Shown here piece after piece: positions 8,839 to 60,663 of a stretch of DNA of 64,000 bases. The stretch lies in NCBI GenBank assembly GCA_030647775.1, contig JAUSJC010000010.1, forward strand, positions 6,208 through 70,207, written 5' to 3'. The position numbers were made by a program, and so were the translations under genes. Source of the DNA: Candidatus Curtissbacteria bacterium (GTDB lineage Bacteria > Patescibacteriota > Microgenomatia > Curtissbacterales > GWA2-41-24). The notes beneath the pieces were generated by a model, which had not been told where the DNA came from, searched no databases, and worked only from the letters and a program-made list of their open reading frames with translations. The stretch's first letter is position 1; each line of letters opens with the position of its first letter.

Positions 8839-8880
8839 TTTGACGCCAGCCAACTTTCCCCCTAATATGGAATTAGCTGT

Positions 8881-8962
8881 CGGGTTATTGGGCTGTTGGG
8901 ACATTAGGCTATTAGGAAGAGAGCACCTACCTAATCACCCACTAACCTAAAAACCTAATCGG
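8881..8962. repeat. Imperfect palindromic intergenic element, family A (TTGGG/TTAGG half then CCTAA half).
   Basis: 'ttattgggctgttgggacattaggctattagg ... cctaatcacccactaacctaaaaacctaatc'. Related copies at 14841, 15250, 27436 and 29630. Confidence 0.45.
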
Positions 8963-8968
8963 TCTGCA

Positions 8969-10465
8969 ATGAAAACTGTCCTTATAAAAATATCTTCAAT
9001 TCTTTTTATCTTTTTGTTCCTGACAATCGCATTTACTCCTCTCGCTCAAGCTCAAACATCGAAATGCACCCCGTCTGCAGATCTCAAAAATAACACCATT
9101 GACGCTATTAACCAATGCGCCATTGAAAGCGGTGCTTTTGATGATAAAATTTTTAATCTCAACCAAATTGCCGGCACAGTCGATAGCTTAAGTACTCTAT
9201 TAACCGGCCAATCTCAACTCCACCCGGCAACAAACAGCATCACCGCAGACGCCGGAGCGCTCACGGCTTCCGGAAAACTTATTGCCAGCCTTTATTCCAT
9301 TCCTCCCGTCTCCGGAGTCCAATATTTTGCACAACAAATTCAAAAATTTAACCCTGTCCAACCAGCTTATGCCCAAACATCTGCCGGAATCGGTTTTAAC
9401 GCACTATCACCGGTTCAAGATGTCTGGGCCGCTTTCAGGAATTTCTCTTACGTCGGCTTCGTCCTTGTCTTTATCGTCATCGGTTTTATGATTATGTTTC
9501 GCTCTAAAATTTCTCCGCAGGCCGTCGCCACCATCCAAGATTCACTGCCAAGAATTGTTGTCGCCCTCATCCTTGTCACCTTCAGCTACGCTATCGTCGG
9601 GTTGATGATTGATTTAATGTTCGTCCTCTTAAACGTTACAATTAACGCTTTAGGTGCTGCTGGCCTTACAACCGCCAATGCAGAAAAAGTAACCAACTCA
9701 AATGTCTTTAGCGTTGTCATGGGTTCACAAAAAGACATTTTTGGTGCGGTATTTGAAGCCGTTTCCGGCATTATTAAAAATGTATTTGATAATAATTGGT
9801 TAACTAAAATAATCGGGGTTCTCGGAGGATCAATTTTTGGGGTCATAGCAGGAATTGCCATGCTCTTTGTGATGTTCCGAATCTTTATAATGCTTTTGAT
9901 GTCCTACATAAGTATCATCATACTGACTATATTTGCTCCTTTTATATTACTTTTCCATGCCCTGCCCGGCAATAACGGCGCTAAAGAATGGTTCAAACAA
10001 GTAGGAGCCAACGTCGCCGTTTTCCCGACAGTTGCCTTAATGTTTATTTTGGCAGGGATGTTAAGCGGTATAGCATCACTCGGAGGCACAGCTGGCAGCC
10101 AGTTTAGTTCTGGTAACGTGGGGCAATTCCCTCTCCTTTCCGGGGGATTAGGACTTACAAATATCGGCAGTCTCATTGGTTTGGGTATTTTATTCATGAC
10201 ACCCGGAGCAGCAAAGATGGTTAAAGAAAGATTGGGAGTTAAAGAGGGTGCAATCGGAGCAGGCGGAGCCATGGCCGGTGCAGCTCTTGGCGCCGGAGCC
10301 GGCGCACTTGGCAGACCATTTGGTGCCGCTATCAACCCTGTCAGGCAATCACTCTCCTATCAATATGGGGCTGGAATGGCACAAAGAATCGGCAGATTTA
10401 CTGGTAAAACCGATAAAACCTCAACACCAAGCGAAGCAGAAGTAGAAGCAACCCAACGTTCTTAA
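8969..10465 (+). CDS. Polytopic membrane protein, VirB6/TrbL-like candidate (498 aa).
   Basis: Signal peptide, ~150-aa exported domain, at least five TM segments, and a Gly/Ala-rich hydrophilic tail, as in VirB6/TrbL. Lies within the T4SS-like locus. Confidence 0.5.
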   Translation: MKTVLIKISSILFIFLFLTIAFTPLAQAQTSKCTPSADLKNNTIDAINQCAIESGAFDDKIFNLNQIAGTVDSLSTLLTGQSQLHPATNSITADAGALTASGKLIASLYSIPPVSGVQYFAQQIQKFNPVQPAYAQTSAGIGFNALSPVQDVWAAFRNFSYVGFVLVFIVIGFMIMFRSKISPQAVATIQDSLPRIVVALILVTFSYAIVGLMIDLMFVLLNVTINALGAAGLTTANAEKVTNSNVFSVVMGSQKDIFGAVFEAVSGIIKNVFDNNWLTKIIGVLGGSIFGVIAGIAMLFVMFRIFIMLLMSYISIIILTIFAPFILLFHALPGNNGAKEWFKQVGANVAVFPTVALMFILAGMLSGIASLGGTAGSQFSSGNVGQFPLLSGGLGLTNIGSLIGLGILFMTPGAAKMVKERLGVKEGAIGAGGAMAGAALGAGAGALGRPFGAAINPVRQSLSYQYGAGMAQRIGRFTGKTDKTSTPSEAEVEATQRS

Positions 10466-10473
10466 AACCGGGA

Positions 10474-13400
10474 CTATTTCCCTGAAACCTGCGCGCTGGA
10501 TTGGCTAAAGACCCCTTTAAATAGCGCCCATAAGAAAACTAAAAAGAAAGGCATCAAGTTGCTCGGCTTTTTTAGTTCACTCCCCATCACCCGGATCATT
10601 TCCAGATATTCCTTCAAAGTCCTGATCGGTACTATACCGGGAATCCCAGCAAGCTTTAAATATTTCTCTTTCATTCTCTCCGCGTCCTTGTGGTCTAACC
10701 GGTTTGTAGCGGCAGACACATCAAGTATCTGTTCAATTTCCGCCGAAGGCATATTATATTCACGTCCCCACCAGTCTTTCCAATGCTTGCCCATCTCCTG
10801 ATGCATTGGAACCAGTAACTTCATCCACGGATGCATTCTTATCTCACGGGTTGAATAGAACATCTTACGGTTATTAATGCCCATAAAAGTTTTGGTATCG
10901 GGACTGTTTAAATACGTCTGGCAAGCGTCTGCCGCGAAATACTTCTTCGTTTCTTTTCTGTCTGTCCACCAGTCTCCCATATTGTATTTAATAATATTTG
11001 TTTTCTCATTACTAAAAACCTCGCTCCAGCTAATATTTTGAAAAGTTAACTCCCCGTCATCTACTAACTCCTCGAGTGCAACTCCCCTTACCCAACCCCT
11101 ATCATTGGAATCACCACCCTCCCAGTTATTATCTAAGCTTTTACCGCCATTCCACTTTCCAATGTCGAGCTTACGCCCGTTATCGATATTCTTCATCCTG
11201 TCTGCAACTACATTCGCAAAACGTCTACTGGGGATACCAGGCCTTGCAACAACCAGCTTGTTTGCAATACCAGCATCAACATCATCATCCATTCGCAGCT
11301 TGTCATTGATAAGTTTAATAAGTAAGCGGTTATTGCCCAGTATTCCGCGCCTTCTGCCAAGCATATGTTTCGTTAATATGTAGTTGGCGTCCCTTGGCCT
11401 GCCTCTTACCTCATTTTGTAAAAATTCACCATAATGGTCTACCATCCTGCCAAACCAAACATCCGAATAATTGTTAAAAACAAAAGCCCCAAGCTTTTTT
11501 CTGCTCCTGCCATTATCATCCTTAAACCATTCTCCCTTTTTTTTGTCTCTATCCCATATCCTTATGCCGTCATAATCGGAAAACCCTCCCAATGTCCAAG
11601 TTACGTTGTAACCGTTATTAATAACCTGATCCAAAAGCCCCGCCTGAAGAAATTCGTCAATCTTATCACCCGATAAGCCCATTCCACCCAATCTGGTTTT
11701 AAGCGCATCAAGCAGGTCTTTCTTTCTCGTCCTTAAATAATGATAATCAGGGTCTGTTTCCTTATAACCGTGAGCACCCAGTAAAGTAGTCTCTCGATAC
11801 CAATCCAAAACAACTTTTTCCGCATTGCTAGGTTTAGCCCAGTATTCATTTATTGCATCATCGCTGGCGCCAACCCCAATTTTTTTCTTTACATAACCCT
11901 TTATCTCATCCCTTAATCGATTAAGTTCACCACGATCGACTACTGCCGATTTATCAAAAAGGTTCTTAATCTCTTCCGGCACGGTAACAAAATCTGTAGT
12001 TATATCTACTAAAGTCAGGCCTTCGACAAGATTCATCTGTGCCCTTTCCTTTGAAAACCGCTCAAAATAAACCTTCATCGCAACATCCAGTAAGTTAAAC
12101 TTTTCCGTCTCGTAAACCGGATTTCCACTGGCATCAACAATAGGATTACCAGCGGCATCTTTTTTCTGAATTCGGGAAACGAAATCATCCCCGTTATGAT
12201 CTTGAAAAAACCTGTCGAAAAAGATTTTAAAAGTATCATCCTTCCATAAGTTATTGCCAGCAATCGCTTCAAGCACTTTATCCGGATCCATCGCGTGCCC
12301 CTCCATAGTCAGGCGCAGAGAATAAATCGCAATAACCGCGTCTCTTAATTCATCTATTTTCATTTTCAGCTCCATCGCCTCCTTCTTTTCCTTTCCTGTT
12401 AAAGTTTCAACGGGTATCGCGTCAGAAATTTGGGTGATTACTTGTCTCACCCGACTAACTTCTTCCTGCGTCGAATTACCCGATTCCAACCGCCTGAAAT
12501 TGTTTTGCACATTCTTCATTGAGTCTTGCCAGTCTTTTGGGATACCGTATTCTGACTCTCTAACAATATTCAATCTGACACCCTCAAAAGTCGTCGAGGC
12601 TCTCCATTCCAGAAGCCCTTCAGCCCCCGCCACAGCTGGACGGCTTTTTGCGTACTCATAAAGCTGATAGTCAAAATCAGGCAGATGAATATTACCGATA
12701 CTAAGAGACCCCTCCAACTCTTTAATTTTGATGTCAAGAGGGTTAAAAAGACGCGCCCTTACCCCCGGCCCCAAAGCCTGAGCCCTCCCTCGAAGGGCCT
12801 CATCCATCTCTTTGGATAACTTTTTAAGATCATCTCTTCTAGCTTTGGGTACAATGCTGTCCAAAATTGCTTGTCTCGGGGTCCCTTTTGCTAAAATCTC
12901 ATGAGTTTCAATAGCATTCCCCAAGTTCTTTACAAAACGGTACCCGTCACCTCCAACCGTAGCTAGCCTTCTTGCTTCGATAAATTGGAAATCGAGAACC
13001 TCCCTCCGTGCATCAACAGCATCCACCTGAATTATCGTCAGGGGCCCAATAAGTGAAGTCTTAACGAGTAATTCCTGTATTATCTTCTCCGTAGAACCCA
13101 GCTTGACTAAACGAGCCATAATTCTCCCTTTAGCAACTCCAAACTCAGCATCAAATGCAACAGTGTCAGCCATTATCCTTTGTATGGATTTCAATGTCTC
13201 TAGCTGTAAAAGGTTGTAATCAACCAAGGAGTCCCTGTAGCTTTCATAGTCCATACGTCTCATCTCCATCATGTCTCCCAAACGCTTCTCATAATCTGAA
13301 TAAAAATCTTCAAATTTCCGAAATATTTCAGGCCTATCATCGCTCGAGCCTAACGCTCCACGCATCTCCATATCATCTAATATTCCAAGCCTCCTATGAA

Positions 13401-14598
13401 GCTCTTCAACTTGGTCTGGACCCAAAGCAGCTGTTGTTGCACCGAATACTGTACCCCCTCCGGCAATTGCTGGAACAATCCGCATACCATTCTCCTCCGC
13501 CCAAGCTAACCGCTCATTCCTGCCCATCCCACCCCAAATATCCGGTGTCTCCAAACGCTTATCGACCCCTGCCCCCTTAAAAAATCTATTGATGTCACCA
13601 ACAACATCTTCGCTTTTATAAAGTGGATAATTGACAGCAACATATTTTCCACCTTCTGTTTCGTAAACTTCAGCGTTTGTATTAGGATCAATAAATCTCA
13701 ATTTAAAATCAGGATCAACCTCACCTGCAGGAAAAGCGGTCGTGTTGGATATTCCGCGACTGTTTAATAAATCCATCTTTTTGACTGGATCATCCCTGTC
13801 CCACGTATCGGGAAGTTTTACATTGACCCCTTGCGCTGTCAAGGCCGCCTCCGCAAGCTCCCTGGGCATATTCCATAGATGAGGATACGTTCCGACAATC
13901 TTCGGCCTTTCTCCGGTGGTATCTTCCTCCTTCGCTACTTTTCTTCCCCTATGTATCTCTTCCGCCTCGACGGCACCAACCACAACTCTTTTCCCAACTT
14001 TCTCCCTTGTCAAAGTCTCTTCTTCAAGATCTCTGGCTTTCTCGATCTTCAAACGGGCTAAGTCCTCTTCAACTTTTCTTTCTTTTGTTCCGGCACGGGC
14101 TTCGAAATCCTCATTCGCTGGTTCGGCAATATCCACATCCTCTTCACGCATAACCCCCTGGGCTTCAACCACAATATCGGCAGAGGACATCTTATCGACT
14201 TCTTCAAGCATATATCCCCTTTCCAAAAGAATGTCCTTAAGCCGCTTAAATTTCTCGTAAGGAACCGCAACTTGCCCATCGCCATCCCTCAACTCTGCTA
14301 GAATTTCTGCAGCCGCTTTTGCATCTTTAAACGGTAATTTTACTGGTTGTTTGTTTGGGGTTGGCTTTTCGTCCGACTTATAAGTTGCCGGTTTGGATTC
14401 TCCCCCCTGTCGACTTTTTTCTTCTTCGCTTTGCCTAGGAGATTTTTTGGCTCCCTTTTTATCGGCCTCCTTTTTGCCCTCATCTGTTCTCCTTTTCTTC
14501 TCGTTATCCAAACGGCGCTGCTCTCTTTTTTGTTCCTCGTCTCTTCCTGGGGTTTCTTCTGGCATATTCATATTATATCCAAAACTTGCTTCCGACAT
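10474..14598 (-). CDS. Giant orphan protein (~1374 aa) with a Lys/Glu/Arg-rich low-complexity N-terminus and a hydrophobic C-terminal tail. No recognisable catalytic motif.
   Basis: Single uninterrupted frame. ATG at 14598 is preceded by AAGGAAG; the track start at 14631 is a GTG. No Walker A or relaxase HxH motifs seen. Confidence 0.6.
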   Translation of the reverse strand: MSEASFGYNMNMPEETPGRDEEQKREQRRLDNEKKRRTDEGKKEADKKGAKKSPRQSEEEKSRQGGESKPATYKSDEKPTPNKQPVKLPFKDAKAAAEILAELRDGDGQVAVPYEKFKRLKDILLERGYMLEEVDKMSSADIVVEAQGVMREEDVDIAEPANEDFEARAGTKERKVEEDLARLKIEKARDLEEETLTREKVGKRVVVGAVEAEEIHRGRKVAKEEDTTGERPKIVGTYPHLWNMPRELAEAALTAQGVNVKLPDTWDRDDPVKKMDLLNSRGISNTTAFPAGEVDPDFKLRFIDPNTNAEVYETEGGKYVAVNYPLYKSEDVVGDINRFFKGAGVDKRLETPDIWGGMGRNERLAWAEENGMRIVPAIAGGGTVFGATTAALGPDQVEELHRRLGILDDMEMRGALGSSDDRPEIFRKFEDFYSDYEKRLGDMMEMRRMDYESYRDSLVDYNLLQLETLKSIQRIMADTVAFDAEFGVAKGRIMARLVKLGSTEKIIQELLVKTSLIGPLTIIQVDAVDARREVLDFQFIEARRLATVGGDGYRFVKNLGNAIETHEILAKGTPRQAILDSIVPKARRDDLKKLSKEMDEALRGRAQALGPGVRARLFNPLDIKIKELEGSLSIGNIHLPDFDYQLYEYAKSRPAVAGAEGLLEWRASTTFEGVRLNIVRESEYGIPKDWQDSMKNVQNNFRRLESGNSTQEEVSRVRQVITQISDAIPVETLTGKEKKEAMELKMKIDELRDAVIAIYSLRLTMEGHAMDPDKVLEAIAGNNLWKDDTFKIFFDRFFQDHNGDDFVSRIQKKDAAGNPIVDASGNPVYETEKFNLLDVAMKVYFERFSKERAQMNLVEGLTLVDITTDFVTVPEEIKNLFDKSAVVDRGELNRLRDEIKGYVKKKIGVGASDDAINEYWAKPSNAEKVVLDWYRETTLLGAHGYKETDPDYHYLRTRKKDLLDALKTRLGGMGLSGDKIDEFLQAGLLDQVINNGYNVTWTLGGFSDYDGIRIWDRDKKKGEWFKDDNGRSRKKLGAFVFNNYSDVWFGRMVDHYGEFLQNEVRGRPRDANYILTKHMLGRRRGILGNNRLLIKLINDKLRMDDDVDAGIANKLVVARPGIPSRRFANVVADRMKNIDNGRKLDIGKWNGGKSLDNNWEGGDSNDRGWVRGVALEELVDDGELTFQNISWSEVFSNEKTNIIKYNMGDWWTDRKETKKYFAADACQTYLNSPDTKTFMGINNRKMFYSTREIRMHPWMKLLVPMHQEMGKHWKDWWGREYNMPSAEIEQILDVSAATNRLDHKDAERMKEKYLKLAGIPGIVPIRTLKEYLEMIRVMGSELKKPSNLMPFFLVFLWALFKGVFSQSSAQVSGK

Positions 14599-14840
14599 AC
14601 AATCTTCCTTTCTATCGCCAATTATAATCACCTACCCTATAGTTGCTTGACTTTAACCTGACAGCCAATCTGACAATTTTGTCAGACGCTAAAAGCTAAA
14701 CGACAAACGACTAAGACAAGATAAAAATCAGTATTAATTTTCATGGTCAGTGTGAAAATCTGGGCCTATTTTGAGGCTAGATATTTCCACTTCTCTGCTC
14801 TTGTTTCATATGTTATGGTAACTTTGGTGACAAAGTTACC

Positions 14841-14913
14841 AGGCTATTGGGTACTTAGGTAATTAGGTTATTGGGAGACTAACCAAACAACCCAAAGACC
14901 TAAAAGCCTAATC
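14841..14913. repeat. Family A palindromic element immediately upstream of the four-helix-bundle gene.
   Basis: 'ggctattgggtacttaggtaattaggttattggg agact aaccaaacaacccaaagacctaaaagcctaatcgcc'. Confidence 0.45.
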
Positions 14914-14925
14914 GCCATTTCAAAA

Positions 14926-15318
14926 ATGGGTGATTTTACAAAACTTATTATTTGGCAAAAAGCTCACGATCTAACAATTAAGGTCTACGCTTTAACAAAA
15001 AAGCTACCTAAAACCGAAGATTATAGCTTGAAATCGCAATTGAGACGAGCTGCAGTCTCCTGTGAGTCAAACATTGCCGAAGGAGAAACCAGATACACTG
15101 ACGCAGCAAAAATCAACTTCTTTGTAGATTCAAGGTCATCCGGTGCAGAAGTTCAAAGTCAGTTGATGATTATGCGTGACGTTTATCCAGAATTATCAGA
15201 AGAATCCGAAGCATTACGTTTGGAATACGAAGATTTTTGCAAACAAACCAACAGCCTAATTTCGTTTAGAAGAAAATCTAACCTAATATCCCAAAATCCA
15301 AAAAACCTAACAGCCTAA
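14926..15318 (+). CDS. Four-helix-bundle protein (family formerly called 23S rRNA intervening-sequence protein).
   Basis: 'IWQKAHDLTIKVYALTKKLPKTEDYSLKSQLRRAAVSCESNIAEGE' matches the TIGR02436-type signature. Its 3' end is built from a family-A CCTAA half-repeat. Confidence 0.75.
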   Translation: MGDFTKLIIWQKAHDLTIKVYALTKKLPKTEDYSLKSQLRRAAVSCESNIAEGETRYTDAAKINFFVDSRSSGAEVQSQLMIMRDVYPELSEESEALRLEYEDFCKQTNSLISFRRKSNLISQNPKNLTA

Positions 15319-16826
15319 TGAACCAACACCCTGTCCCGCAGCATATCGCCTCTTTCGAATTTAAGCTTTTTGGCAACCTTACCATCCGCCAATTTGTCGC
15401 TCTTTCCATTCCAATGTCTGTTGCCGCCCTTATTTTCTTTTCCCCGGGCCCAACCATCATCCGCTTTCCATTTTCCATCTTCTTCGCCGGCCTCGGCCTG
15501 TTTGCCGCTCTTGTCCCGGTCCAGGGACGCCCTTTTGATAAATGGGTCGTTGCCTTCACGAGGGCCATCCTTTCACCAACCCAAAGGGTTTGGGTTAAAG
15601 AAGCCAAAATCCCGCAGTTTTTAAATATCATCATAAACCAGCCCAAACACCCCAATGAGCCCCCCCAACCCATTACCTTTCAGGACCGCCAAAGGCTTTC
15701 CCAGTACTTGAGATCACTCCCCAAATCCACAGTTTCGCCTCTGGATGTTAGAGAACAGCAGGCCATCGAAAAGCTCGGCCTCGTTCCTCCGGTGCAGGGC
15801 TTGCCCTCCGAAGCTTTAGCGAAGGAGGGCAAACTTCCCCCTTCAATCCTTTGGACAACTGCCGGCCCCAAGACCAAACAGGCGTTCGTCCAAACTACCG
15901 AACCGATCTTGGAAGAACGGTTCCAGGGAATTATGCCCCAAGCCTTACCCCAAATAACTCCGCTTGGAAAACCGGCAACCGCCGTTAGAATCAGCCCCCA
16001 CGCTAAACCGTATGCCCTGCCCGGCCTGGAAAAAAGGCTCGCCGAAAAACAAATTCTCGTTTCCCCCACGCTTCAGCTGGCTTCAAACACCAACTTTTCT
16101 ATTGAAAACATCATTCCTATCCCCGGCAAACATGTCAGGCTTCTGCACGGTCTTACCAAAAGCCGCACGCGAAAACTCCATTTTGCCCCGCCGAAGAATT
16201 TCAATCTTGCCAATCTGCCGGTGCGCGGCGAAGCAAGATTCGAAGTCTCCGAAGAATTGAAAAAACGCTTCCAATTTAATGAACCGGCACTCCAGCCTAT
16301 ACCCCAAGCCCAAGAAACCCCGGTGCAAACACCGAAAATCGAAGTTGAACCGCAACGCGCGTCCGCTCACCAGGCGCCAAGGCCGCCGAAACAAAATCAA
16401 TTTGTTCCCAGACCGCAAACAGCTCACTTCACTGCCCAAAACGCCACGCTAAAACAGGAAGAATCCGAACGTGCAGATTCGCAAATGACCATTCGGGGCC
16501 AAAAGGTTGACGGCACCAAATCTGCTTCTATTTTAGAAAGGGCCCGTATTATCCCTTTAACAAACACCCCCAATGTTCTCTCCGGCTTGGTTTCCGATGC
16601 CGCCGGTATTCCTCTTGAAGGCGCAATCATTACTGTCCGCGACCAAAGCGGCATACCGGTTCGCGCCTTAAAAACCAATAAGCTTGGCCAGTTTCTTTCA
16701 ACAACTCCTCTTATAAGCGGCGTTTATTCTTTGGAAATTGAGCACACAAACGCCCGTTTTGAACCAATCACCATTAATCTTATCGGCAACATTGTGGTAC
16801 CACTGGAGATTAAAGCCAAAGGATGA
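15318..16826 (+). CDS. PrgI-like (VirB3-analogous) T4SS membrane protein with a ~380-aa C-terminal extension.
   Basis: N-terminal 'FEFKLFGNLTIRQFVALSIPMSVAALIFF ... FFAGLGLFAALVPVQGRPFDKWV' gives two TM helices typical of the PrgI family. Lies just upstream of virB4. Confidence 0.5.
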   Translation: MNQHPVPQHIASFEFKLFGNLTIRQFVALSIPMSVAALIFFSPGPTIIRFPFSIFFAGLGLFAALVPVQGRPFDKWVVAFTRAILSPTQRVWVKEAKIPQFLNIIINQPKHPNEPPQPITFQDRQRLSQYLRSLPKSTVSPLDVREQQAIEKLGLVPPVQGLPSEALAKEGKLPPSILWTTAGPKTKQAFVQTTEPILEERFQGIMPQALPQITPLGKPATAVRISPHAKPYALPGLEKRLAEKQILVSPTLQLASNTNFSIENIIPIPGKHVRLLHGLTKSRTRKLHFAPPKNFNLANLPVRGEARFEVSEELKKRFQFNEPALQPIPQAQETPVQTPKIEVEPQRASAHQAPRPPKQNQFVPRPQTAHFTAQNATLKQEESERADSQMTIRGQKVDGTKSASILERARIIPLTNTPNVLSGLVSDAAGIPLEGAIITVRDQSGIPVRALKTNKLGQFLSTTPLISGVYSLEIEHTNARFEPITINLIGNIVVPLEIKAKG

Positions 16827-19620: not shown

Positions 19621-19624
19621 AATC

Positions 19625-19715
19625 GCTAAACGCTAATCGACTAAAGACTAACGCAAACATTAACCCTTCGTCGTTAGTCGTTCGCCTGCCTTGCCGGCAG
19701 GCAGGTCGTTCGTCA
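19625..19715. repeat. Family B element: GACTAAAGACTAACG arms around a 'gcctgccttgccggcaggcagg' palindrome.
   Basis: A 36-nt core is identical to 40943-40978. Related arms at 53644 and 57843. Confidence 0.5.
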
Positions 19716-19737
19716 AATGTTATATTGGTATTAACCC

Positions 19738-22734
19738 ATGCCTGTATCTGCGCCACCAAAAAACAAACCCGGCGGCCTTGCCGTCTTGGCCGAAATCGAA
19801 GTCATCGAGCCGGAGTTAAAAAGACACCGCCGGGAATTTAGCCGGCAATTTTCATCCAGCCTTAGCCCAAAAATCCCCGCAATCCTTTCCGCCGTCGGTA
19901 TAGAAAATCCGCCTTCACCACAAGTATCATCAAATCTTGTTACCCAAACAGTACACCAATCACTTGAAAATGTCGGCAAAATCCAGTCCACGGCACAATT
20001 GCAGCAAGTAGTTACCGATGCTCTCACTCAAAGCGTCATCAGCCAAGAAGGAATATCCGGAGGAAAAGCGGCAGACCAAGTCTATGAAAAAATGCAGGAA
20101 CCGGCGGCGGAAGTTGTTGCCGAAAATCAAAAAGGATTGGAAGAAGAAGCCGTGCTTGCCAATATTGCCCAGATTGCCAGCCTCCAAAAGCCAAACTCCG
20201 AAACAACCGCAATCATCAGAGACGAAGTCGAATCGGTAGTTGAATCCGAGGATCCTCTCATGCCCCCCCAAGAACTCGACCAGCTAATATCAAGTGTCGA
20301 AACTTATTTGGAAAGAGGCAGAAAAAATTTAAATACGGAGCTTGCCAGTGTCACGGAGGAAAATCTCCCATCACTAGAAAAGTTTCAGGAAATCAAAAAC
20401 AAAGCCCACGACCAAACCATCTCGCAGCTTGGCGATACCCAAATCGGGAACGTCAATCTAAAAGAACTTGCTTCGGACATTGGGGCAGAACTGGGGCTCA
20501 AACCTCTCAACGGGAACCAGGCCGACAAATTCGGTTTGGGTTTTGCCGAACCTACCTCAAATACTTTTAAAACCCGAAGCCTCGAGGGCCAAAGCATGGG
20601 GCTGAGACTTGCCTCAAGCACAAAAAATCAGGAAAAAGCCATTCTAGCGCTGACTGCCCATGACGGCCAAAAGATGGGGGAGGCCCAGAGAAATCCAAGG
20701 CTGCGGGAATTTAGTTTTTTCAAAAAGGCTAAAAGTTTTCCCTCGAAAAAATCAGGTGAGATGGCAAAATACGCTAACCACTTTCAGGGGTTCCCGGGCG
20801 GGCTCAACAGGGCTTCCCAAACCGCCTGGCGTTCGATCTTTGCCTATTTAAACCGCTACCCCGGTATTTTTGTACCCCAAAGTATTTTAAATGACCGCGT
20901 CCTTGTTTCTGGAGGTATCGGCGCGCTTTCTCGAGGATCCGGCAGCTTTTCGTTTGGTAATGTTGTCTCCGGCACCCGGGGCCTGACTTCCGGTTTAAAA
21001 AGCGCTATTGGGTTCGGAAAAGGGGCAAAAGGAGTAGTTATGGCCGGCAAACTTGCCTTTGGGGCTTCCAACCCCGCCGGCTGGGCCATGCTTGCCGCCC
21101 AAGCCCTGCCATTTTTGAAAAAACATGCCGCAAAGATTATTGCCGGCGCAATCGGTCTGGGAATGCTTCTGCTTCTAATGCTCTTAAAATTACTTGCAAA
21201 GCTGGCGGCTATCGCCGCCGGCGCGGCAACCGGTGCGGTAATTGGAGCCGTTCTAGGTTTTGGCCTACCCGGGGCCATCATCGGTGCAATTATTGGCGCC
21301 GGCGTCGGCTGGATAGTTAGTAACTGGGCCGTACCCGTAGCTAATTTCGTCGGCTCGGTTTTCTCCGGCTTGGGAAGCGCCGCTTCTTCGGTAGGGCTGG
21401 CGATCAATTCCCTCGGCTCGGCTATTGTTTCCGGCGCCGGCTCCGTTTTAAGCGGCGCACTAGGAGTTCTCGGTGGTTCCGCTAACTTTGTCATGAGCCT
21501 CGGCAGTCTTTCCATCCCCGCCGGTGCCGTCTTTGCCCCTCTTGCAATCGGAATCGGTGCGGTTGGTATTGGCGGAATTCTCGTTGGCACCATCACCGCC
21601 ACCAGCTTTTTCAATTCAACAAATGAGGGGGCTGTTACTGTCCCGCCTCCCGGCGCGTCAATCGGCAACTGGCCGACTGATGGATTAGTCACCCAAGGAC
21701 CCCAAGGGTCAGCCTCTCATAAGAACATTTTTGACGGGTCAAAAGCAGAGGCAATGGATATAGCTAACGTCGCTTCCCCCCCAGTCTTTTCCACAATTAA
21801 CGGCCTTGTCAAAACCATCTTTTTCTGTTCGAAAAATAACAGTTGCAACAGTGGGTATGGAAATTATGTAGAAGTCGCCGACAGCGCAAAATCTTTCAGC
21901 ATCCTCTACGGTCATCTAAGCTCAATCGACGTGTCTCAAGGAGCCCCGATTACCCCTAATTCAAAATTGGGGATAATGGGTAATAATGGAAACTCAACCG
22001 CTACCCATCTTCATTGGGAATTTCGCGGCATTGGTTTGGCCCCTCCAAATATTCCCCAGACTATCACTCCGCCAAACTGCGATACGCCATCAATTCCCTG
22101 CAACCCCGCCTATGTCACCCGCGACCCCAACTTCAAAGGATCGCCATACTGGTTTCTCTTGGATAGGCTAAACAAAAAAGAATACCTATATCAAGGCGTC
22201 CCCGGCGACAAAGGTAAAAGCCAGCTCGTCAAAACCTTTGCTGTAAATCCGATGAAGGTTAACCCGGGAATTCCTGGCGGGATTGAAGATACAATAATAA
22301 AACCCGGGGAACCCGGATATCTTCAGCGCTGGGGACACCCTACCCCCCTGCCTCAAAAAGTCGGCAGAGAGTATTGGACATTTACCGGTGTAAACCCAAA
22401 TGATCCCGGTATTCCGGGAGGTAAATTTTTAATTCTGGACGTCCCTCCCAGCGGAACAGGCTGCACTAACCCTGACCCAAACAATAAGGAGTGTGGTGGT
22501 CCGGTACCCTATATCGAGTGCGGACCAAATAGAGACGAGCAGTGTAACTGGGGAGGCAAAAGTGGGCAGTTCGGCCTCCACGGAGTAGATGCCACCCATA
22601 CCCTGGAAGACACAGGCAGTCAGGGATGCGTTAGACATAGCACGGAGGATATGGATTTCCTTTGGAATTTACTACATGACGAAATTCCCAAAAACCGGGG
22701 ACAAATCCGTTACTATATTCAAGATGGGGTCTAA
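19738..22734 (+). CDS. Cell-wall hydrolase candidate (998 aa): soluble N-domain, then a Gly/Ala-rich polytopic membrane region, then a C-terminal M23/LytM metallopeptidase domain.
   Basis: 'GYGNYVEVADS...YGHLSSIDVSQGAPI...GIMGNNGNSTATHLHWEF' is the M23 signature. The central ~140 aa are hydrophobic and Gly-rich. Start codon is uncertain. Confidence 0.7.
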   Translation: MPVSAPPKNKPGGLAVLAEIEVIEPELKRHRREFSRQFSSSLSPKIPAILSAVGIENPPSPQVSSNLVTQTVHQSLENVGKIQSTAQLQQVVTDALTQSVISQEGISGGKAADQVYEKMQEPAAEVVAENQKGLEEEAVLANIAQIASLQKPNSETTAIIRDEVESVVESEDPLMPPQELDQLISSVETYLERGRKNLNTELASVTEENLPSLEKFQEIKNKAHDQTISQLGDTQIGNVNLKELASDIGAELGLKPLNGNQADKFGLGFAEPTSNTFKTRSLEGQSMGLRLASSTKNQEKAILALTAHDGQKMGEAQRNPRLREFSFFKKAKSFPSKKSGEMAKYANHFQGFPGGLNRASQTAWRSIFAYLNRYPGIFVPQSILNDRVLVSGGIGALSRGSGSFSFGNVVSGTRGLTSGLKSAIGFGKGAKGVVMAGKLAFGASNPAGWAMLAAQALPFLKKHAAKIIAGAIGLGMLLLLMLLKLLAKLAAIAAGAATGAVIGAVLGFGLPGAIIGAIIGAGVGWIVSNWAVPVANFVGSVFSGLGSAASSVGLAINSLGSAIVSGAGSVLSGALGVLGGSANFVMSLGSLSIPAGAVFAPLAIGIGAVGIGGILVGTITATSFFNSTNEGAVTVPPPGASIGNWPTDGLVTQGPQGSASHKNIFDGSKAEAMDIANVASPPVFSTINGLVKTIFFCSKNNSCNSGYGNYVEVADSAKSFSILYGHLSSIDVSQGAPITPNSKLGIMGNNGNSTATHLHWEFRGIGLAPPNIPQTITPPNCDTPSIPCNPAYVTRDPNFKGSPYWFLLDRLNKKEYLYQGVPGDKGKSQLVKTFAVNPMKVNPGIPGGIEDTIIKPGEPGYLQRWGHPTPLPQKVGREYWTFTGVNPNDPGIPGGKFLILDVPPSGTGCTNPDPNNKECGGPVPYIECGPNRDEQCNWGGKSGQFGLHGVDATHTLEDTGSQGCVRHSTEDMDFLWNLLHDEIPKNRGQIRYYIQDGV

Positions 22735-23790: not shown

Positions 23791-24086
23791 TAATTCCTAA
23801 ACTTTATTTTAAAAACAACTCTCCCCCCGAGGGCTTTATTAATGTCCTTTATCAGCCCGCCAGCGCGCATTAAAAGTTCTGTCCGCGCCAGTCCCTGCAC
23901 CTTTACGGTTAACTCCCCATTTTTGAAACTGGTTGCCTTGGCGCTCTCTATTGCCTCTTTCGGCAAATCGGGAGTCGCCAAAAGCACATCACCAAAAGCT
24001 CTCCTTACAAAAAGTGCGAACATTGCCTCACTCGTTTTTGAATGGCGCGGTAGATTTCTGATTAATTTATCAATAGAGGTGAACAC
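23787..24086 (-). CDS. DUF721/DciA-like small protein next to dnaN.
   Basis: 99 aa. 'FKNGELTVKVQGLARTELLMRAGGLIKDINKALGGRVVFKIKF' fits the DUF721 pattern. Conserved dnaA-dnaN neighbourhood. Confidence 0.45.
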   Translation of the reverse strand: MFTSIDKLIRNLPRHSKTSEAMFALFVRRAFGDVLLATPDLPKEAIESAKATSFKNGELTVKVQGLARTELLMRAGGLIKDINKALGGRVVFKIKFRNY

Positions 24087-24159
24087 ACCCCTAGTATAGG
24101 GGAATAAATACCAATTTCAAATGTCAAATTTCAAATAATTGGATATTGGAAATTAGAAA

Positions 24160-24182
24160 TTGGAAATTCCAGAGCTTTAGCT
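24160..24182 (-). terminator. Hairpin overlapping the dnaN stop, followed on the minus strand by tandem AATTTCC heptamers.
   Basis: 'tccagagctttagctctgga'. No canonical U-tract, so weak. Confidence 0.3.
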
Positions 24183-25364
24183 CTGGAGTCTAACCGGCAT
24201 GATGATGTGGAAAAACTTTTCTTCTGGCAAAACTCCGGTTAATTTCCCGGGGTTTAAACTTTCAACCATCTCAAAATTAACTTCCTCGTCTTCAATAACC
24301 CCCAAGGCTTCCAGCAAATAACGGTAATTAAAAGCTATTTCTCCGCCGGCACCGGAAAGTTCAATCCCTATTTGCCCATTTCCGGAACCAACCTGGGCCG
24401 CCCCCGCTGAAACATTAAGTGATTGGGCTTTGGCGCCTCCGCCGGCTGGCGGATTCCCCGCCTGCCTGCCGGCAGGCATGGCTTCAAATTTTAAGCGCAA
24501 AATGCTTCCGGAATCTCTTGCAAAAATTGAGGCAATACGAACCACCTTAATAAACTCTTCTTTATTCACCCTTGCATGGCTCACAAAACTGGCCGGTATT
24601 ACTTTTTGCCAGTTGGGGAATTCTCCCTCAATAAGCCTCGATGTAAACTCAACTTCCCCCATCTTAAAACTTATTTGATTCAACCCTTCCGCCACCACAA
24701 TATCGATTACTCCTTCTTTGGCTCCTTCACCCCCAAGTTCACCACCAATTTTGGCAGCTTCCAAAATTGCCCTTGCCGGTACCACAATCTTGATACCCAA
24801 AGGGGGCGCCTCCAAAACCTTAACTTCATCAAAGCTCAACCTGTACCCGTCCGTTGCCACCATTGCCACTTTCCCTCCGCTAAATTCACACAAAACTCCG
24901 GTCAAAATTGGCCTTCCTTCGTCCTGTGCGGCCGCAAAAGCGACACGTGCTGCGGCTTTCGAAAAAACATCGGCCCCTATTTTTATTTTGTGCCCCCCCT
25001 CAATTTTGGGTATCGCCGGGAATTCCTCTGCCGCGATGGTTGCAAACCTTGCCTCGTATCCTTTTGTTAAAATCTGCACCTCTTCCCCTAATTTTTCAAA
25101 AACCACATCCCCCTCTTGCGGCAATTGGGAAATAAATTCCTGAAGCATCTTCCCCGAAAGGGTTACTTTCCCCTCGGCTTCCACCTCTCCCGCTATCGTG
25201 ACCTTCGTCGCTGTTTCCAAATTCGTCGAAAGGACCTCTATTTTACTTTTTGTTGCACTTATCAGGAGATTGGAAAGAATTGGTAAATTTGCCTTCACTA
25301 GGAGAGATTTGCCCGCAAGGAGCAGGGCGAGAGACATGTCTTTTTGTGAAACCGTGAACTTCAT
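24177..25364 (-). CDS. dnaN: DNA polymerase III beta sliding clamp.
   Basis: 'MKFTVSQKDMSLALLLAGKSL', 'ATDGYRLS'. Contains a ~25-aa Gly-rich insertion (PAGRQAGNPPAGGGAKAQ...). Confidence 0.85.
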   Translation of the reverse strand: MKFTVSQKDMSLALLLAGKSLLVKANLPILSNLLISATKSKIEVLSTNLETATKVTIAGEVEAEGKVTLSGKMLQEFISQLPQEGDVVFEKLGEEVQILTKGYEARFATIAAEEFPAIPKIEGGHKIKIGADVFSKAAARVAFAAAQDEGRPILTGVLCEFSGGKVAMVATDGYRLSFDEVKVLEAPPLGIKIVVPARAILEAAKIGGELGGEGAKEGVIDIVVAEGLNQISFKMGEVEFTSRLIEGEFPNWQKVIPASFVSHARVNKEEFIKVVRIASIFARDSGSILRLKFEAMPAGRQAGNPPAGGGAKAQSLNVSAGAAQVGSGNGQIGIELSGAGGEIAFNYRYLLEALGVIEDEEVNFEMVESLNPGKLTGVLPEEKFFHIIMPVRLQS

Positions 25365-25399
25365 TTATGTGGGGACAGATTAAAAAGAAGATCGCAAGC

Positions 25400-25659
25400 T
25401 CTACCAGTTAATTGTGATTATAATCTCAATCCTCACTTATGTCTACCAGTTATCCCCAATTCTAAAAGAAAAATTAAATACTTTAATTACTATTCAAATA
25501 AGTAGTAGTAATTATAAAAGGGTTGTTATGTTGAAAGACAGCCATTTGCCAAAGGCAAATTGTTGTGTATTTCATATGTTTAAAACCGGCCCAAAATAGT
25601 TAATAAAAAAATTAAATTGTGGACAAGCCATTAAAATTAGTGGATAAATTATTAGTAAA
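25400..25659. promoter_or_regulatory. AT-rich dnaN-dnaA intergenic region with DnaA-box-like 9-mers (oriC half / DUE candidate).
   Basis: 'ttatcccca' (25450-25458), 'tgtggacaa' (25617-25625), 'agtggataa' (25640-25648). Strongly AT-rich. Confidence 0.45.
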
Positions 25660-27012: not shown

Positions 27013-27552
27013 GATAATAGTACCTTTCTAAAAAGTATTGTGCAGGCTGTAAGTCCTAGTCTGTCGGCAGGCAGAGTAGGATTGAAAATCCTGGTCCGTG
27101 GCAGACGGAGAAGGGCGAAAGTCCTAAGTGCAGTCAAAGGGCTTGCCGGGGGCTGAATCCGGGTAGAGCGAAGATCTAATTCACCCCGCTTAGCGGGGCG
27201 AGGGATCAATTTTTCGAGAACTTGAAAATAAGCTCTCTTCTTTTTGGCTCGCAAACTATATTTGCAAAACTTTTCCACAATTGTCAAGCAGTCAAAAATT
27301 TTGTTGAAAACTAAATATTTTACTGCGCAGACCCCGTCAATTCGCTCCTTGAGCCGTGTATGAATAATACTGAAAAGGCGAAAGGTAAGAATGAGTGGGG
27401 TCAAGGACGCAAAATTATTGTGGATAACCCTCTTTGGGCTATTAGGAATTTAGGCAGTTGGGTTATTAAGGATGAAACTAAATCTTGCTAAAATCCCCGG
27501 TTTCCTGATATCCTAATGGCCTAATAACCCAAAAACCTAATAACCTAATCAT
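27013..27552. promoter_or_regulatory. dnaA upstream / rpmH upstream region with DnaA boxes (oriC candidate) and a GC-rich structured segment.
   Basis: Perfect box TGTGGATAA (27419-27427, reverse complement of TTATCCACA). One-mismatch 'ttttccaca' (27271-27279). Followed by a family-A element (27436-27550). Confidence 0.5.
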
Positions 27553-27690
27553 ATGCCGAAACGAACTTATCAACCGAAAAAAAGAAAAAGGGCAAAAACT
27601 CACGGTTTTCGAGTCAGGATGCGCACGACTGACGGCAGGTCAGTGTTAAAACGCCGAAGAGCCAAAAAACGTGTAAAACTTACAGTTTAA
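27553..27690 (+). CDS. rpmH: 50S ribosomal protein L34.
   Basis: Manual translation gives [45 protein letters not shown]. Below the ORF-track size cutoff. Confidence 0.85.
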
Positions 27691-27694
27691 ACCA

Positions 27695-27958
27695 TTGGAA
27701 CAAAAAGCTTTAAAAATTCCGGGTGAAGATTTCACCTTGATAATCAAAAAAGGGGTACCAAAAACAGTAATCGTCATAAGCAAAAAAGTTGCCAAATTAG
27801 CAGTAGATAGAAATAGGATCAGACGGCTTTTCAAAGAGGCTCTAAGGAGTTTGAATTTTAAGGGTCAGACAACGGTTATAGTCAAAAAAAATATCGCCCA
27901 GTACAAAAAAGAACAAGTACAAAAAGCTTTAGAAAAATTGCTCACCAAATATGTCTAA
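27695..27958 (+). CDS. rnpA: Ribonuclease P protein component (short form).
   Basis: Position directly after rpmH. 'RNRIRRLFKEA' motif. 87 aa, basic. Confidence 0.65.
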   Translation: MEQKALKIPGEDFTLIIKKGVPKTVIVISKKVAKLAVDRNRIRRLFKEALRSLNFKGQTTVIVKKNIAQYKKEQVQKALEKLLTKYV

Positions 27959-28160
27959 AAAAATCGCCAGAATCATCTTCTTCATCTACCAAGGTGTAAC
28001 TAGATCAAACACCAGATCTTGCCGCTTTACACCGACCTGCTCGAAGTACGCTCTTGACGCCATCGAGAAGTATGGAGGAGTCCATGGATCATACCTTGCC
28101 ATAAGAAGGGTTCTCGCCTGTCATCCATTTTCCAGGCGTCCCTTTTATGACCCAGCCTAA
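27951..28160 (+). CDS. yidD: Membrane protein insertion efficiency factor YidD.
   Basis: 'CRFTPTCSKYALDAIEKYG...LAIRRVLACHPFS'. Confidence 0.85.
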   Translation: MSKKIARIIFFIYQGVTRSNTRSCRFTPTCSKYALDAIEKYGGVHGSYLAIRRVLACHPFSRRPFYDPA

Positions 28161-28165
28161 AACCC

Positions 28166-28987
28166 ATGAACCCATACGATACTTTCTTATTCAACCCGAT
28201 CCTTAATCTCTTAATAGCAATCTATACTTTTTTGCACGCGCTTTCGATTCCAGGAGCACTTGGGCTATCAATAATTATTCTCTCCGCTGGAATCAGGCTT
28301 GTCCTTTGGCCGTTAACATCAGTGCAGCTTAGAAGCACCCAAAAAATGGCAGCTCTCAAACCGCATCTGGACAGGATTAAAATCGATCATGGCCACGATA
28401 AAGTGCGTCACCAGCAGGAGGTTAGCAAGCTTTACAAAGAACACGGCGTTAATCCTTTGGCTGGTTGTTTGCCTCTTCTTGTACAAATGCCGTTTTTTAT
28501 TGGGCTCTACAATGTTTTGGATAAGGCCTTGCAGTTTAATAATGCCAACTTTATAGGTTCGATAAACAGCCATCTTTATTCAACCTCCCTTTACCTTACC
28601 ACCAAACCAGACACTTCCTTTTTGGGTATCTCCCTCTCTACCCGCCCCAACGAATGGGCGCATGTAGGTTTTATCATTTTAGCTATCCCCCTTATCACGG
28701 GACTGCTCCAATTTGTCCAGTCAAAGATGCTTACACCGCAGGTGTCGCCCACCGCTATCAAAAAGAGCGGCGATAAAAAAGCCAGCACGGAAGACACCAT
28801 GTCCCAAGTCCAGTCCCAAATGACTTATCTTATGCCGGTTATGATTGCTTTCTTTTCATATGGTTTTGCCGTTGGCCTCTCCCTCTACTGGAATACATTC
28901 ACCATTATTGGTATCATCCAGCAATATATAATCTCCGGTCCCGGAGCCTTGAATAAATATCTGCCGAAGAGATTACAGAAAATTTAA
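28166..28987 (+). CDS. yidC: Membrane protein insertase YidC (short Gram-positive type).
   Basis: 'LWPLT...MAALKP...LYKEHGVNPLAGCLPLLVQMPFFIGLY'. Confidence 0.85.
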   Translation: MNPYDTFLFNPILNLLIAIYTFLHALSIPGALGLSIIILSAGIRLVLWPLTSVQLRSTQKMAALKPHLDRIKIDHGHDKVRHQQEVSKLYKEHGVNPLAGCLPLLVQMPFFIGLYNVLDKALQFNNANFIGSINSHLYSTSLYLTTKPDTSFLGISLSTRPNEWAHVGFIILAIPLITGLLQFVQSKMLTPQVSPTAIKKSGDKKASTEDTMSQVQSQMTYLMPVMIAFFSYGFAVGLSLYWNTFTIIGIIQQYIISGPGALNKYLPKRLQKI

Positions 28988-28994
28988 GATGCTA

Positions 28995-29062
28995 CCTCTG
29001 TCATTCCGGACTTGATCCGGAATCTATACGTTTGGCAAGATCCTGAACCAAGCCTTCGAGGC
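28995..29062. repeat. Family C hairpin element downstream of yidC.
   Basis: 'tgtcaTTCCGGActtgaTCCGGAAtc' plus a second GC-rich stem 'ggccgtgagccctcaggcc'. Confidence 0.4.
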
Positions 29063-29063
29063 C

Positions 29064-29627
29064 GTGAGCCCTCAGGCCGAATCGGTTCAGGATGACGGTG
29101 AGAAGAAGTGTCAAAATAAAGTTATGACAAAACTAAAGTTGGACGAAAATTTCGTAGCGGAAAACGTCAGGCAAATCATCGAAATGCTCGGCGTTTCGGC
29201 AACCGCCGAAGTTTCTAAAGAAGAAGACACTTTAGGCCCGCAGTCCGAAGGACGAGGACCGCATGGCCCTGTATACGTCGTGGATATTAGCTCCGAAGAC
29301 TCATCTCTTCTAATAGGCAAACACGGTGCCAACCTCGAAAGCCTGCAGTTTATTCTTGCCGTCCGCCTCAAAACTTTAACCGGTCAGGACGATTTTGAAA
29401 TTTTTGTTGACGTGGACAATTTTCGCAGGCAAAAAGAAGACCGTTTAGAAAAAATGGCCCGCCAGATCGCCGAAAAAGTCGGCCAAACCGGCAATCCGGA
29501 GCCCCTCTATGATTTATCTCCGTCAGAACGCCGCCTCATCCACACAATTCTTACCGATAATCCGCAAGTCACCACGATTTCTGAAGGCGAAGGCATTGAC
29601 CGTCACCTAATCATAAAACCTAAGTAA
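29064..29627 (+). CDS. jag: Jag/KhpB-like RNA-binding protein (KH + R3H domains).
   Basis: 'IGKHGANLESLQFILAV' (KH). C-terminal 'LSPSERRLIHTILTDNPQVTTISEGEG' (R3H). Start is either GTG 29064 or ATG 29124. Confidence 0.7.
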   Translation: MSPQAESVQDDGEKKCQNKVMTKLKLDENFVAENVRQIIEMLGVSATAEVSKEEDTLGPQSEGRGPHGPVYVVDISSEDSSLLIGKHGANLESLQFILAVRLKTLTGQDDFEIFVDVDNFRRQKEDRLEKMARQIAEKVGQTGNPEPLYDLSPSERRLIHTILTDNPQVTTISEGEGIDRHLIIKPK

Positions 29628-29629
29628 TT

Positions 29630-29700
29630 AGGTATTAGCACTTAGAGCTTAGTAATCCGCAAACTAACCTCTAACCTCTAATAGCTAATGGCTTAAAAAC
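29630..29700. repeat. Degenerate family-A-like element (TTAGG/CTAACCTCTAAC).
   Basis: 'cctaagtaattaggtattagcacttag ... ctaacctctaacctctaatagctaatgg'. The 'ctaacctctaacc' part is also found inside tsaD at ~44230. Confidence 0.3.
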
Positions 29701-40887: not shown

Positions 40888-40892
40888 GCCAA

Positions 40893-40988
40893 AAGACTAA
40901 AGTCTAACGACTAACGTCGAAAATTATTATAACAACAACATTAGTCTTTAGTCGTTCGCCTGCCTTGCCGGCAGGCAGGTCGTTAGTC
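40893..40988. repeat. Family B element (GACTAAAGTCTAACGACTAACG ... palindrome 'gcctgccttgccggcaggcagg').
   Basis: Core identical to 19684-19705. Sits between a convergent/divergent gene pair. Confidence 0.5.
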
Positions 40989-40991
40989 ATC

Positions 40992-53643: not shown

Positions 53644-53700
53644 CTAAAGACGAAAGACTAACGTCTAAAGCTTTAGTCGATAGTCATTAGACAAAACAAA
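53644..53700. repeat. Family B arm copy between groES and groEL.
   Basis: 'tgactaaagacgaaagactaacgtctaaagctttagtcgatagtca'. Confidence 0.4.
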
Positions 53701-60539: not shown

Positions 60540-60663
60540 AATCCAACCACAATAGAAAAAAAGGTTTCCTGCTCGCAGCTGCTCCCAGGATCTTCGGCAA
60601 CGTTTCGCCTCGACCTCGACTTTTCGCGCAATTCAAATTGAAAGTGCTAGAATTAGCCCGCTT

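Follow-up and report, generated by a model that had tools for sequence, protein, structure and literature searches.

A 64,000-nucleotide (nt) stretch of contig JAUSJC010000010.1 from Candidatus Curtissbacteria, hereafter the window, contains a set of dispersed palindromes, Family A, which we read, on balance and with moderate confidence, as fast-turnover selfish or near-neutral palindromic repeats that represent the form lacking an open reading frame (ORF) of cassettes resembling the intervening sequences (IVSs) of 23S rRNA. Judged by their sequence, the copies are members of a wider class of imperfect palindromes whose arms consist of tandem units of about 8 nt, each with a 5-nt pairing core and a 2-3 nt unpaired A-rich spacer. 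This reading is based on the anatomy and discreteness of the copies, the link of their arms to PF05635 (23S_rRNA_IVP) genes, the covariation of paired arms, and turnover at orthologous sites. Since the same arms bracket a PF05635 gene within the window, the Family A copies are regarded here as gene-less siblings of the IVS-like cassette.

Four full Family A palindromes are present in the window (A1 to A4, Table 1), as listed in a sequence-only reading of this DNA, which had also described their arms correctly: TTGGG/TTAGG-type units form the left arm, CCTAA-type units form the right arm, and all four copies can fold. The left arm is made of four units of about 8 nt with the form NNN-TT(A/G)GG, and the right arm of 4-5 units with the form CC(T/C)AA-NNN. 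When units were tallied by position, cores were constant and spacers varied, which is descriptive only, as the search pattern had fixed the cores. Predicted folds were imperfect hairpins of 22-31 bp with free energies between -24 and -35 kcal/mol and folding z-scores of -1.65, -4.07, -3.26, and -4.43 for A1 to A4, and their stems were composed of 5-6 bp helices separated by 1x1 or 2x2 internal loops from the A-rich spacers. Sense and antisense strands folded equally well in a test for G-U versus A-C asymmetry. The location just before gene starts was also borne out, with right arms stopping 6, 12, 2, and 5 nt short of the next start codon, respectively. A promoter-like sequence, TTGACG-17-TAATAT, was found directly upstream of A1 at 8840-8868, A4 (77 nt) fills a stop-to-start gap inside an operon, and A3, whose spacer length is given as 53 nt, lies upstream of rpmH beside a DnaA box (TGTGGATAA, 27419-27427), at the place where the sequence-only reading had seen it.

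Table 1. Family A copies, the PF05635 cassette, other hairpins, and arm units of PF05635 loci. Positions refer to the window unless a locus number (L) is given.
Feature	Position	Strand	Remarks
A1	8881-8962	+	4 TTGGG/TTAGG units, 13-nt loop, 4 CCTAA/CCCA units; next ATG at 8969; 81 bits
A2	14841-14913	+	Left arm 14841-14877 and proximal right arm R' 14878-14913; next ATG that of the PF05635 gene; 84 bits
A3 left arm	27434-27470	+	Between DnaA box and promoter-like spacer
A3 spacer	27471-27511	+	Holds CTTGCTA-N18-TATCCT
A3 right arm	27512-27550	+	5 units; next ATG that of rpmH at 27553
A4	29621-29697	+	TTAG-N variant units; from last codons and stop of jag/R3H gene toward Wzy_C gene ATG; 41 bits
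PF05635 (23S_rRNA_IVP) four-helix-bundle gene	14926-15318	+	Enclosed by Family A arms
Distal right arm	15279-15318	+	Pairs with 14841-14877 over the ORF; last unit overlaps PrgI-family gene ATG (CCTAATG)
Small perfect hairpin GGTAACTTTGGTGACAAAGTTACC with upstream TGTTATGGT	14817-14840	+	By eye; equivalent in related PF05635/PrgI loci examined
Non-Family-A hairpin	19621-19720	.	CTAA-type left arm, TTAGTC-type right arm, nested CCTGCCTTGCCGGCAGGCAGG mini-palindrome
Analogous hairpin	24106-24168		
Analogous hairpin	40888-40991		
Analogous hairpin	53644-53692		groES-groEL junction
Analogous hairpin	57853-57919		
TCAGG/CCTGA hairpins	L005 1856-1993, 2299-2385, 2626-2704		Covariance model / comparison
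TCAGG/CCTGA hairpin	L014 97-183		Covariance model / comparison
atpG site compared between lineages	L011 (atpG 3' part)		Comparison
PF05635 arm units, upstream/downstream			TTAGG / CCTAA
PF05635 arm units, upstream/downstream			TCAGG / CCTGA
PF05635 arm units, upstream/downstream			GGATAG / CTATCC
PF05635 arm units, upstream/downstream			GTGGGT / ACCCAC
PF05635 arm units, upstream/downstream			GGAGCCG / CGGCTC
PF05635 arm units, upstream/downstream			AGTCAGG / CCTGACT (Nostoc)
PF05635 arm units, upstream/downstream			GGAGATA / TATCTCC (Picosynechococcus, between cas10 and cmr3)

Scanning at the genome level covered the 64-kb window, and about 40 of its ORFs were scanned for protein families. 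Runs of at least three TTAGG/TTGGG pentamers at 6-11 nt spacing were observed 3 times, against 0.01 expected from 200 dinucleotide shuffles, and pairs of left and right arrays gave the same figures (3 observed, 0.01 expected, 200 dinucleotide shuffles). An ungapped inverted-repeat finder missed the gapped copies, so a covariance model (R1) was used instead, as had been proposed in the sequence-only reading; it was built from three window copies and four from relatives, with a mean column identity of 60% among the 7 copies, and the 27.4-kb copy was left out. The model matched exactly four loci in the window, including the left-out copy at 55-63 bits, and the next best match scored 15 bits (E of about 0.1-0.2), with nothing else above 16 bits. 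Thus, by both window scan and shuffle counts, Family A is a discrete set of elements rather than a general bias in composition. The scan detected no coding insertion of Family A in the window, and the "A-like stretch" that had been assigned within tsaD (44215-44265) had no match to the model and could be aligned to solved TsaD proteins at every residue apart from 2+2 extra ones; it is ordinary coding sequence. Rfam 15 at the gathering score had no matches in the 64 kb, rRNA included. An independent Logan assembly was identical to the window over 13861-15829 (100% match), one hairpin included, and since this second assembly carries the same hairpin, misassembly of this contig does not explain the palindromes.

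As a sequence family, Family A is part of a wider palindrome habit of the genome. The window has 35 periodic arrays with four or more units of 7-9 nt, compared to about 12 in shuffles, and about half of the 35 fall in the non-coding DNA, which makes up about 10% of the window. In at least five more intergenic regions, palindromes of like build are made of other units, including GACTAA/TTAGTC and AAATTTCA/TGGAAATT.

The likeness to IVSs lies in the surroundings of A2. The ORF at 14926-15318 is the sole PF05635 gene detected in the window, its product is identical to a GenBank entry named "four helix bundle protein" from a Candidatus Curtissbacteria metagenome-assembled genome (MAG) of the candidate phyla radiation (CPR/Microgenomates), where it is encoded on a 527-kb contig, and it lies between two copies that the sequence-only reading had named, although no link to this gene had been drawn there. 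One of these, described as a half copy at 15250-15318, is real but is not a decayed half; it is a distal right arm that pairs with 14841-14877 across the ORF. The left arm was predicted to pair with the adjacent R' at -28.5 kcal/mol and with the distal arm at -26.2 kcal/mol, compared to -13.5 ± 3.1 for shuffled arms, and when the full 496-nt stretch was folded, the outermost left unit paired with the distal arm, leaving the ORF inside. The last 12 residues of the PF05635 protein (NLISQNPKNLTA) are translated distal right arm, and A1, A3, and A4 contain no ORF. Arms that, by predicted pairing, place a PF05635 ORF in the loop of a long stem constitute the architecture of an IVS, here sited in protein-coding operons. 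IVSs of Coxiella and Leptospira consist of a PF05635 ORF with a 28-bp terminal stem, they are excised by RNase III, and ORF-less versions exist (PMC4990558). The cassette likewise has an enclosing stem, in this class about 28 bp or longer, formed by terminal inverted repeats, together with a PF05635 ORF (E = 1.1e-28) and ORF-less forms; however, it does not lie in a 23S rRNA helix, since the cassette and its siblings occur in protein-coding operons and 5′ leaders and not in rRNA helices 9, 25, or 45. It also has tandem 8-nt units with periodic internal loops in place of a near-perfect stem.

Ahead of the left arm of this cassette stands a small perfect hairpin, preceded by a TGnTATGGT-like motif, and an equivalent pair of features was seen in L002, L003, L004, L015, and L023. 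It may mark the promoter and the 5′ end of the PF05635/prgI transcript.

PF05635 loci were gathered from metagenome and Logan contigs, GTDB genomes, and cyanobacterial plasmids. About 20 distinct loci, from CPR lineages, a Gemmatimonadaceae MAG, and cyanobacterial plasmids, were inspected, and most of them were bracketed by tandem 7-8 nt arrays. In most, the upstream G-rich array stops a few nt before the PF05635 ATG, and a complementary C-rich array is found at or just past the stop codon, often reaching the start codon of the next gene. The unit sequence varies by locus, and the two arms are complementary throughout (Table 1). In a duplex-energy matrix of cassette arms, complementarity to the own arm exceeded that between loci (permutation p ≤ 0.001), a signal that is only moderate because all G-rich and C-rich arrays cross-pair, and the table of units is more telling. 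Within the close pair L003 and L004, coordinated changes of GGT:ACC versus GGC:GCC were found in several units, and unit numbers differ as well. Complementary arms were retained across lineages whose proteins are 50-76% identical. The cassettes are housed in mRNA operons, where they precede prgI, separate atpG from atpD, or follow a cytidylate-kinase gene. Exceptions to bracketing were L025 (Bacteroidales) and two cyanobacterial plasmid loci, L084 and L087. PF05635 genes wedged between cas genes were noted earlier, with no mention of arms (PMC3936711), and our literature search found no description of periodic arms around PF05635 genes.

Some of these loci deserve separate description. In the L025 MAG, GGCGTAA(A/C) tandem units at 2360-2400 and 2852-2920 surround the PF05635 gene in direct, not inverted, orientation. 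Inverted heptamer arrays bracket the PF05635 genes of L085, L086, L088, and L089 on Nostoc and Picosynechococcus plasmids, and ORF-less inverted heptamer arrays are found in pNPUN02 at 19937-20136. In these cyanobacterial loci, a Shine-Dalgarno-like GGAG is found in the left arrays, and CTCC or CCTCC in the right ones.

Orthologous junctions show how quickly the hairpins change, and 57 loci sharing the dnaA-rpmH-rnpA-yidC-jag-wzy synteny were retrieved for comparison. At the jag-wzy junction, the site of A4, the hairpin is missing from L027 and L028, the two closest relatives, whose gaps measure 3-8 nt, and gaps were 15 nt or shorter in most other distinct junctions. A different TTAGG/TTGGG hairpin is present in one lineage and a miniature of one to two units in another; hairpins of about 140 nt and of opposite polarity occur in two lineages, the right arm alone in one, and three lineages with 80-83% identical flanking proteins have three unrelated palindromic inserts. 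Upstream of rpmH, the stretch from the -10 element to the ATG contains inserted periodic hairpins or solo arms in several relatives. A PF05635 cassette occupies the cytidylate-kinase/NAD-kinase junction of L019 and L020; the junction of L005 has no PF05635 gene and a solo array of the CCCACTATCC units seen in L019 and L020, beside an unrelated ORF-less hairpin. Judging from these comparisons, the hairpins turn over too fast to resemble conserved regulators.

Similar hairpins are found inside genes of relatives. The covariance model had three matches in L005 and one orthologous match in L014, all with TCAGG/CCTGA units (Table 1). One of the L005 hairpins spans the atpA 3′ end to the atpG start codon and constitutes a C-terminal extension of AtpA, while the other two are in frame in atpG, at two points where the best-matching solved gamma subunit is shorter by about 15 residues. 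The units of the atpG hairpins are the arm units of the PF05635 cassette directly downstream. Three lineages differ in what is inserted at a single atpG site: one has a full hairpin, another a ATCCAACC array standing alone, and the third a palindrome of unrelated sequence; the solo array, in L014, is a perfect tandem of ATCCAACC x3, and a solo arm was also found in L045. In-frame hairpins in atpG are hard to reconcile with a dedicated promoter or processing role.

According to the reading we favor, the repeats would be gained, lost, expanded by whole units, and replaced quickly, and would be tolerated where they do least harm, that is, in stop-to-start gaps, 5′ leaders, and, in relatives, protein surface loops. 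They would be part of mRNAs and form long imperfect duplexes there: promoter-like motifs precede A1 and A2, and operons contain A4 and the other families, so most copies should be transcribed and able to fold. RNase III may cut or bind these duplexes, as it does IVS stems and Correia elements, and such processing is plausible by analogy, likely as a secondary consequence. Spread or growth could take place at the DNA level, either by unit slippage together with hairpin-templated correction or with the help of a trans-acting factor, and the arms would be held complementary by structural constraint or by hairpin-templated correction. Among the three suggestions of the sequence-only reading, a miniature inverted-repeat transposable element (MITE) comes nearest, in that the copies are discrete, dispersed, non-coding palindromes that some orthologous sites have and others lack.

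Several points weigh against our reading, and the first of them also separates Family A from a true MITE. The target-site duplication that had been proposed as a check was not found on comparing the filled window site with the empty sites in L027 and L028, no near-identical copies were found (about 60% column identity), and no transposase was found among the roughly 40 window ORFs scanned, so strict mobility is only a possibility. As sense and antisense strands fold equally well, nothing ties the structure to action as RNA, and action at the RNA or the DNA level fits the sequence alike. The promoter-like sequence in the A3 spacer means that rpmH mRNA may hold the right arm only. The match between hairpin units and cassette units rests on two to three lineages, the scan covered only 64 kb of the genome, and arm complementarity kept at 50-76% protein identity could mean a selected function rather than selfishness.

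A broader proposal, which we put forward as a rather improbable one, is that PF05635 proteins are the trans-acting partners of periodic hairpins. The ORF cassette would then be the "autonomous" and Family A the "non-autonomous" form of one class spanning CPR, cyanobacteria, and other phyla, with classical 23S rRNA IVSs as its rRNA-resident members. Binding of the protein to the repeated units, in RNA or DNA hairpins, would promote their maintenance, homogenisation, or spread. PF05635 four-helix-bundle proteins are relatives of Avd, the accessory protein of diversity-generating retroelements (DGRs). To our knowledge, no catalytic activity is known for this candidate partner.

The alternative that survives best, although we judge it unlikely, is that the copies are functional RNA stem-loops under selection. 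As long imperfect duplexes in 5′ leaders and between cistrons, they would serve as sites of RNase III processing or stability, or would couple translation by hiding the downstream start until cleavage or the ribosome coming from upstream opens the stem. Their placement would suit such a role, because the left arm begins at the upstream stop or just past a promoter-like site and the right arm stops 0-12 nt before the start codon; moreover, arms covary between loci, pairing cores recur unchanged while spacers vary (a descriptive point, the cores being fixed by the search pattern), the jag-wzy junction is repeatedly occupied by some hairpin of unrelated sequence, and both IVS stems and Correia elements are RNase III substrates (PMC4990558; PMC2649163). 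However, these junctions hold no hairpin in the closest relatives or in most other lineages, like hairpins lie within the coding sequence of atpG, where cleavage would harm, no G-U strand asymmetry was seen, and the left arm of A3 is probably outside the rpmH transcript.

It is slightly harder to accept that the copies are by-products of mutation with neither mobility nor function, in which replication slippage makes tandem 8-nt arrays where the DNA is non-coding or tolerant and intramolecular template switching copies them in inverted form. Solo arms do exist, some of them perfect tandems (the ATCCAACC array of L014 atpG; L045), unit numbers differ between the orthologous arms of L003 and L004, target duplications are absent, and the right arm of A3 looks by eye like an expansion of the native GGCCTA seen in L027. 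This account does not explain why one unit family recurs at four to five distinct places within the 64 kb and nowhere else there, or why the PF05635 association recurs in CPR lineages, cyanobacteria, and a Gemmatimonadaceae MAG, and spacers within an array differ from each other, unlike the product of simple recent slippage.

Sites acting at the DNA level, either arrays bound by a regulator or a cruciform enclosing a promoter or the origin region, are very improbable. A3 flanks promoter-like sequence and adjoins the DnaA box, and A1 and A2 (the latter by eye) stand just downstream of promoter-like motifs, but the 8-bp period is off the DNA helical repeat, the A4, groES-groEL, atpA-atpG, and atpG-internal hairpins are not at promoters, and close relatives keep the promoter motifs without hairpins. 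The promoter-associated protein-binding array of the sequence-only reading finds no support as a general explanation, given an A4 that runs from stop to start inside an operon, hairpins inside atpG of relatives, and closest relatives that have none. Transcription attenuators, the remaining suggestion of that reading, or intrinsic terminators would suit long hairpins upstream of genes but are hardly credible, as no copy is followed by a T-tract, terminator scans of three regions gave zero terminator-like sites, and the right arm runs into the start codon.

Dispersed palindromic repeats, short tandemly repeated repetitive (STRR) arrays, and IVSs are already known, and Family A shares features with several of them. 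STRR arrays, the heptamer arrays of cyanobacteria reportedly described by Mazel et al. in 1990, are also tandem 7-8 nt intergenic units that often form inverted arrays, and in Nostoc plasmids arrays of this kind bracket PF05635 genes or are ORF-less; STRR arrays differ in a period of 7 instead of 8 nt, in their units, and in their phylum. No description of a link between STRR arrays and PF05635 was found in our literature search. The Correia elements of Neisseria, also called Neisseria miniature insertion sequences (NEMIS), are dispersed inverted-repeat elements of about 100 bp near gene starts that are co-transcribed as hairpins and bound or cleaved by RNase III (PMC2649163), but Family A has no counterpart of their conserved terminal inverted repeats, of their TA target duplication, or of their many near-identical copies. 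Rickettsia palindromic elements (RPEs) are in-frame palindromic repeats in protein genes (review PMC10969869), comparable to the insertions in atpG of L005 and L014; RPEs are longer, are not made of 8-nt units, and have no PF05635 partner, and the window has no coding insertion of Family A. Repetitive extragenic palindromic (REP) sequences and their hairpin-forming doublets (REPINs) are likewise short extragenic palindromes without target duplications, for which a resident protein partner has been proposed (PMC3116915). REP palindromes measure 20-40 bp and have a conserved GTAG/CGTC head and an associated gene for a REP-associated tyrosine transposase (RAYT), whereas Family A units have no GTAG/CGTC heads and no RAYT or IS200-like ORF was found in the window ORF scans.

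Three aspects appear to be undescribed: in a CPR genome, a build with an 8-nt period; in several phyla, PF05635 genes outside rRNA that are systematically bracketed by covarying arms of tandem units; and ORF-less siblings of matching unit type, including the in-frame atpG copies in relatives. The sporadic and patchy distribution of IVSs led to the suggestion that they are selfish elements (PMC4990558), and the function of the IVS protein and the origin of IVSs have been standing questions since the early 1990s. If rRNA IVSs are one habitat of a broader class, both questions could be tested by comparative genomics and by binding and cleavage assays. Such a class, if true, would comprise PF05635 genes in stems of short tandem units, with ORF-less siblings across operons and even inside essential genes. 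The hairpins account for much of the non-coding DNA of a streamlined CPR genome and create hypervariable in-frame inserts, for example in AtpG, and they likely confuse CRISPR-array finders and gene callers, as the PF05635 C-terminal tail and the AtpA extension are translated repeat arms.

With regard to gene content, the window holds dnaN-dnaA on the minus strand followed by rpmH-rnpA-yidC-jag-wzy, a PrgI/TraG-type secretion cluster, and groES-groEL, tsaD, leuS, and pyrG. An exact look-up of its L34 protein, aimed at sister strains, gave no record. First genes of its operons were mostly without a Shine-Dalgarno sequence, as judged by eye. The CTTGCTA-N18-TATCCT sequence in the A3 spacer resembles, by eye, the rpmH promoter motif that recurs in most relatives, and a strict sigma-70 scan of the spacer region gave no match. 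In the 160 nt upstream of rpmH in L027-L083, most relatives have a promoter-like motif with CTTGATA or CTTGCAA, 17 nt, and TAnnCT or TATAAT, whose end is only 7-10 nt from the ATG; the rpmH mRNAs of those relatives may therefore have no leader or almost none.

A low-GC island (59989-62869, 36-38% GC) contains a weak BrnT-like ORF (E = 1.5e-4, under the Pfam cut-off) beside a CopG-antitoxin ORF, an ORF that weakly matches HNH_5, and a reverse transcriptase (RVT_1) of 458 aa. For this RVT_1 the window gave no pair of template and variable repeats, and it is probably not part of a DGR. A DGR role for the PF05635 gene was also considered and rejected, as the island holds the sole reverse transcriptase of the window, 46 kb away, with no template/variable repeat pair.

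Two other repeats were observed within tsaD (43823-44905, minus strand). At 44440-44520 about 27 residues that solved TsaD proteins lack are inserted in frame, and the DNA of this insertion is a GC-rich palindrome, CCGCCTGCC...GGCGGGCAGGC, between direct repeats of AATTCCAAATT. In the N-terminal part of tsaD, at 44692-44728 (minus strand), there are about three tandem 8-nt repeats, which read GTGTCAGG on the coding strand; they make up a solo periodic array that lies in coding sequence and is ungapped against homologues.

Lastly, a mini-palindrome of about 20 nt, CCTGCC(T)TGCCGGCAGGCAGG, is nested in arms of larger periodic hairpins at 19685-19705 and 40959-40979, and was also found at 24461-24476 in the window, at 5580-5599 in L005, and at 2883-2900 in L017. 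The copies at 19685 and in L017 have clear duplications of host units alongside (8 and at least 12 nt). In sequence it resembles a very small mobile element that duplicates its target, and it is reminiscent of the small dispersed repeat (SDR) elements of Nostoc reportedly described by Elhai et al. in 2008.

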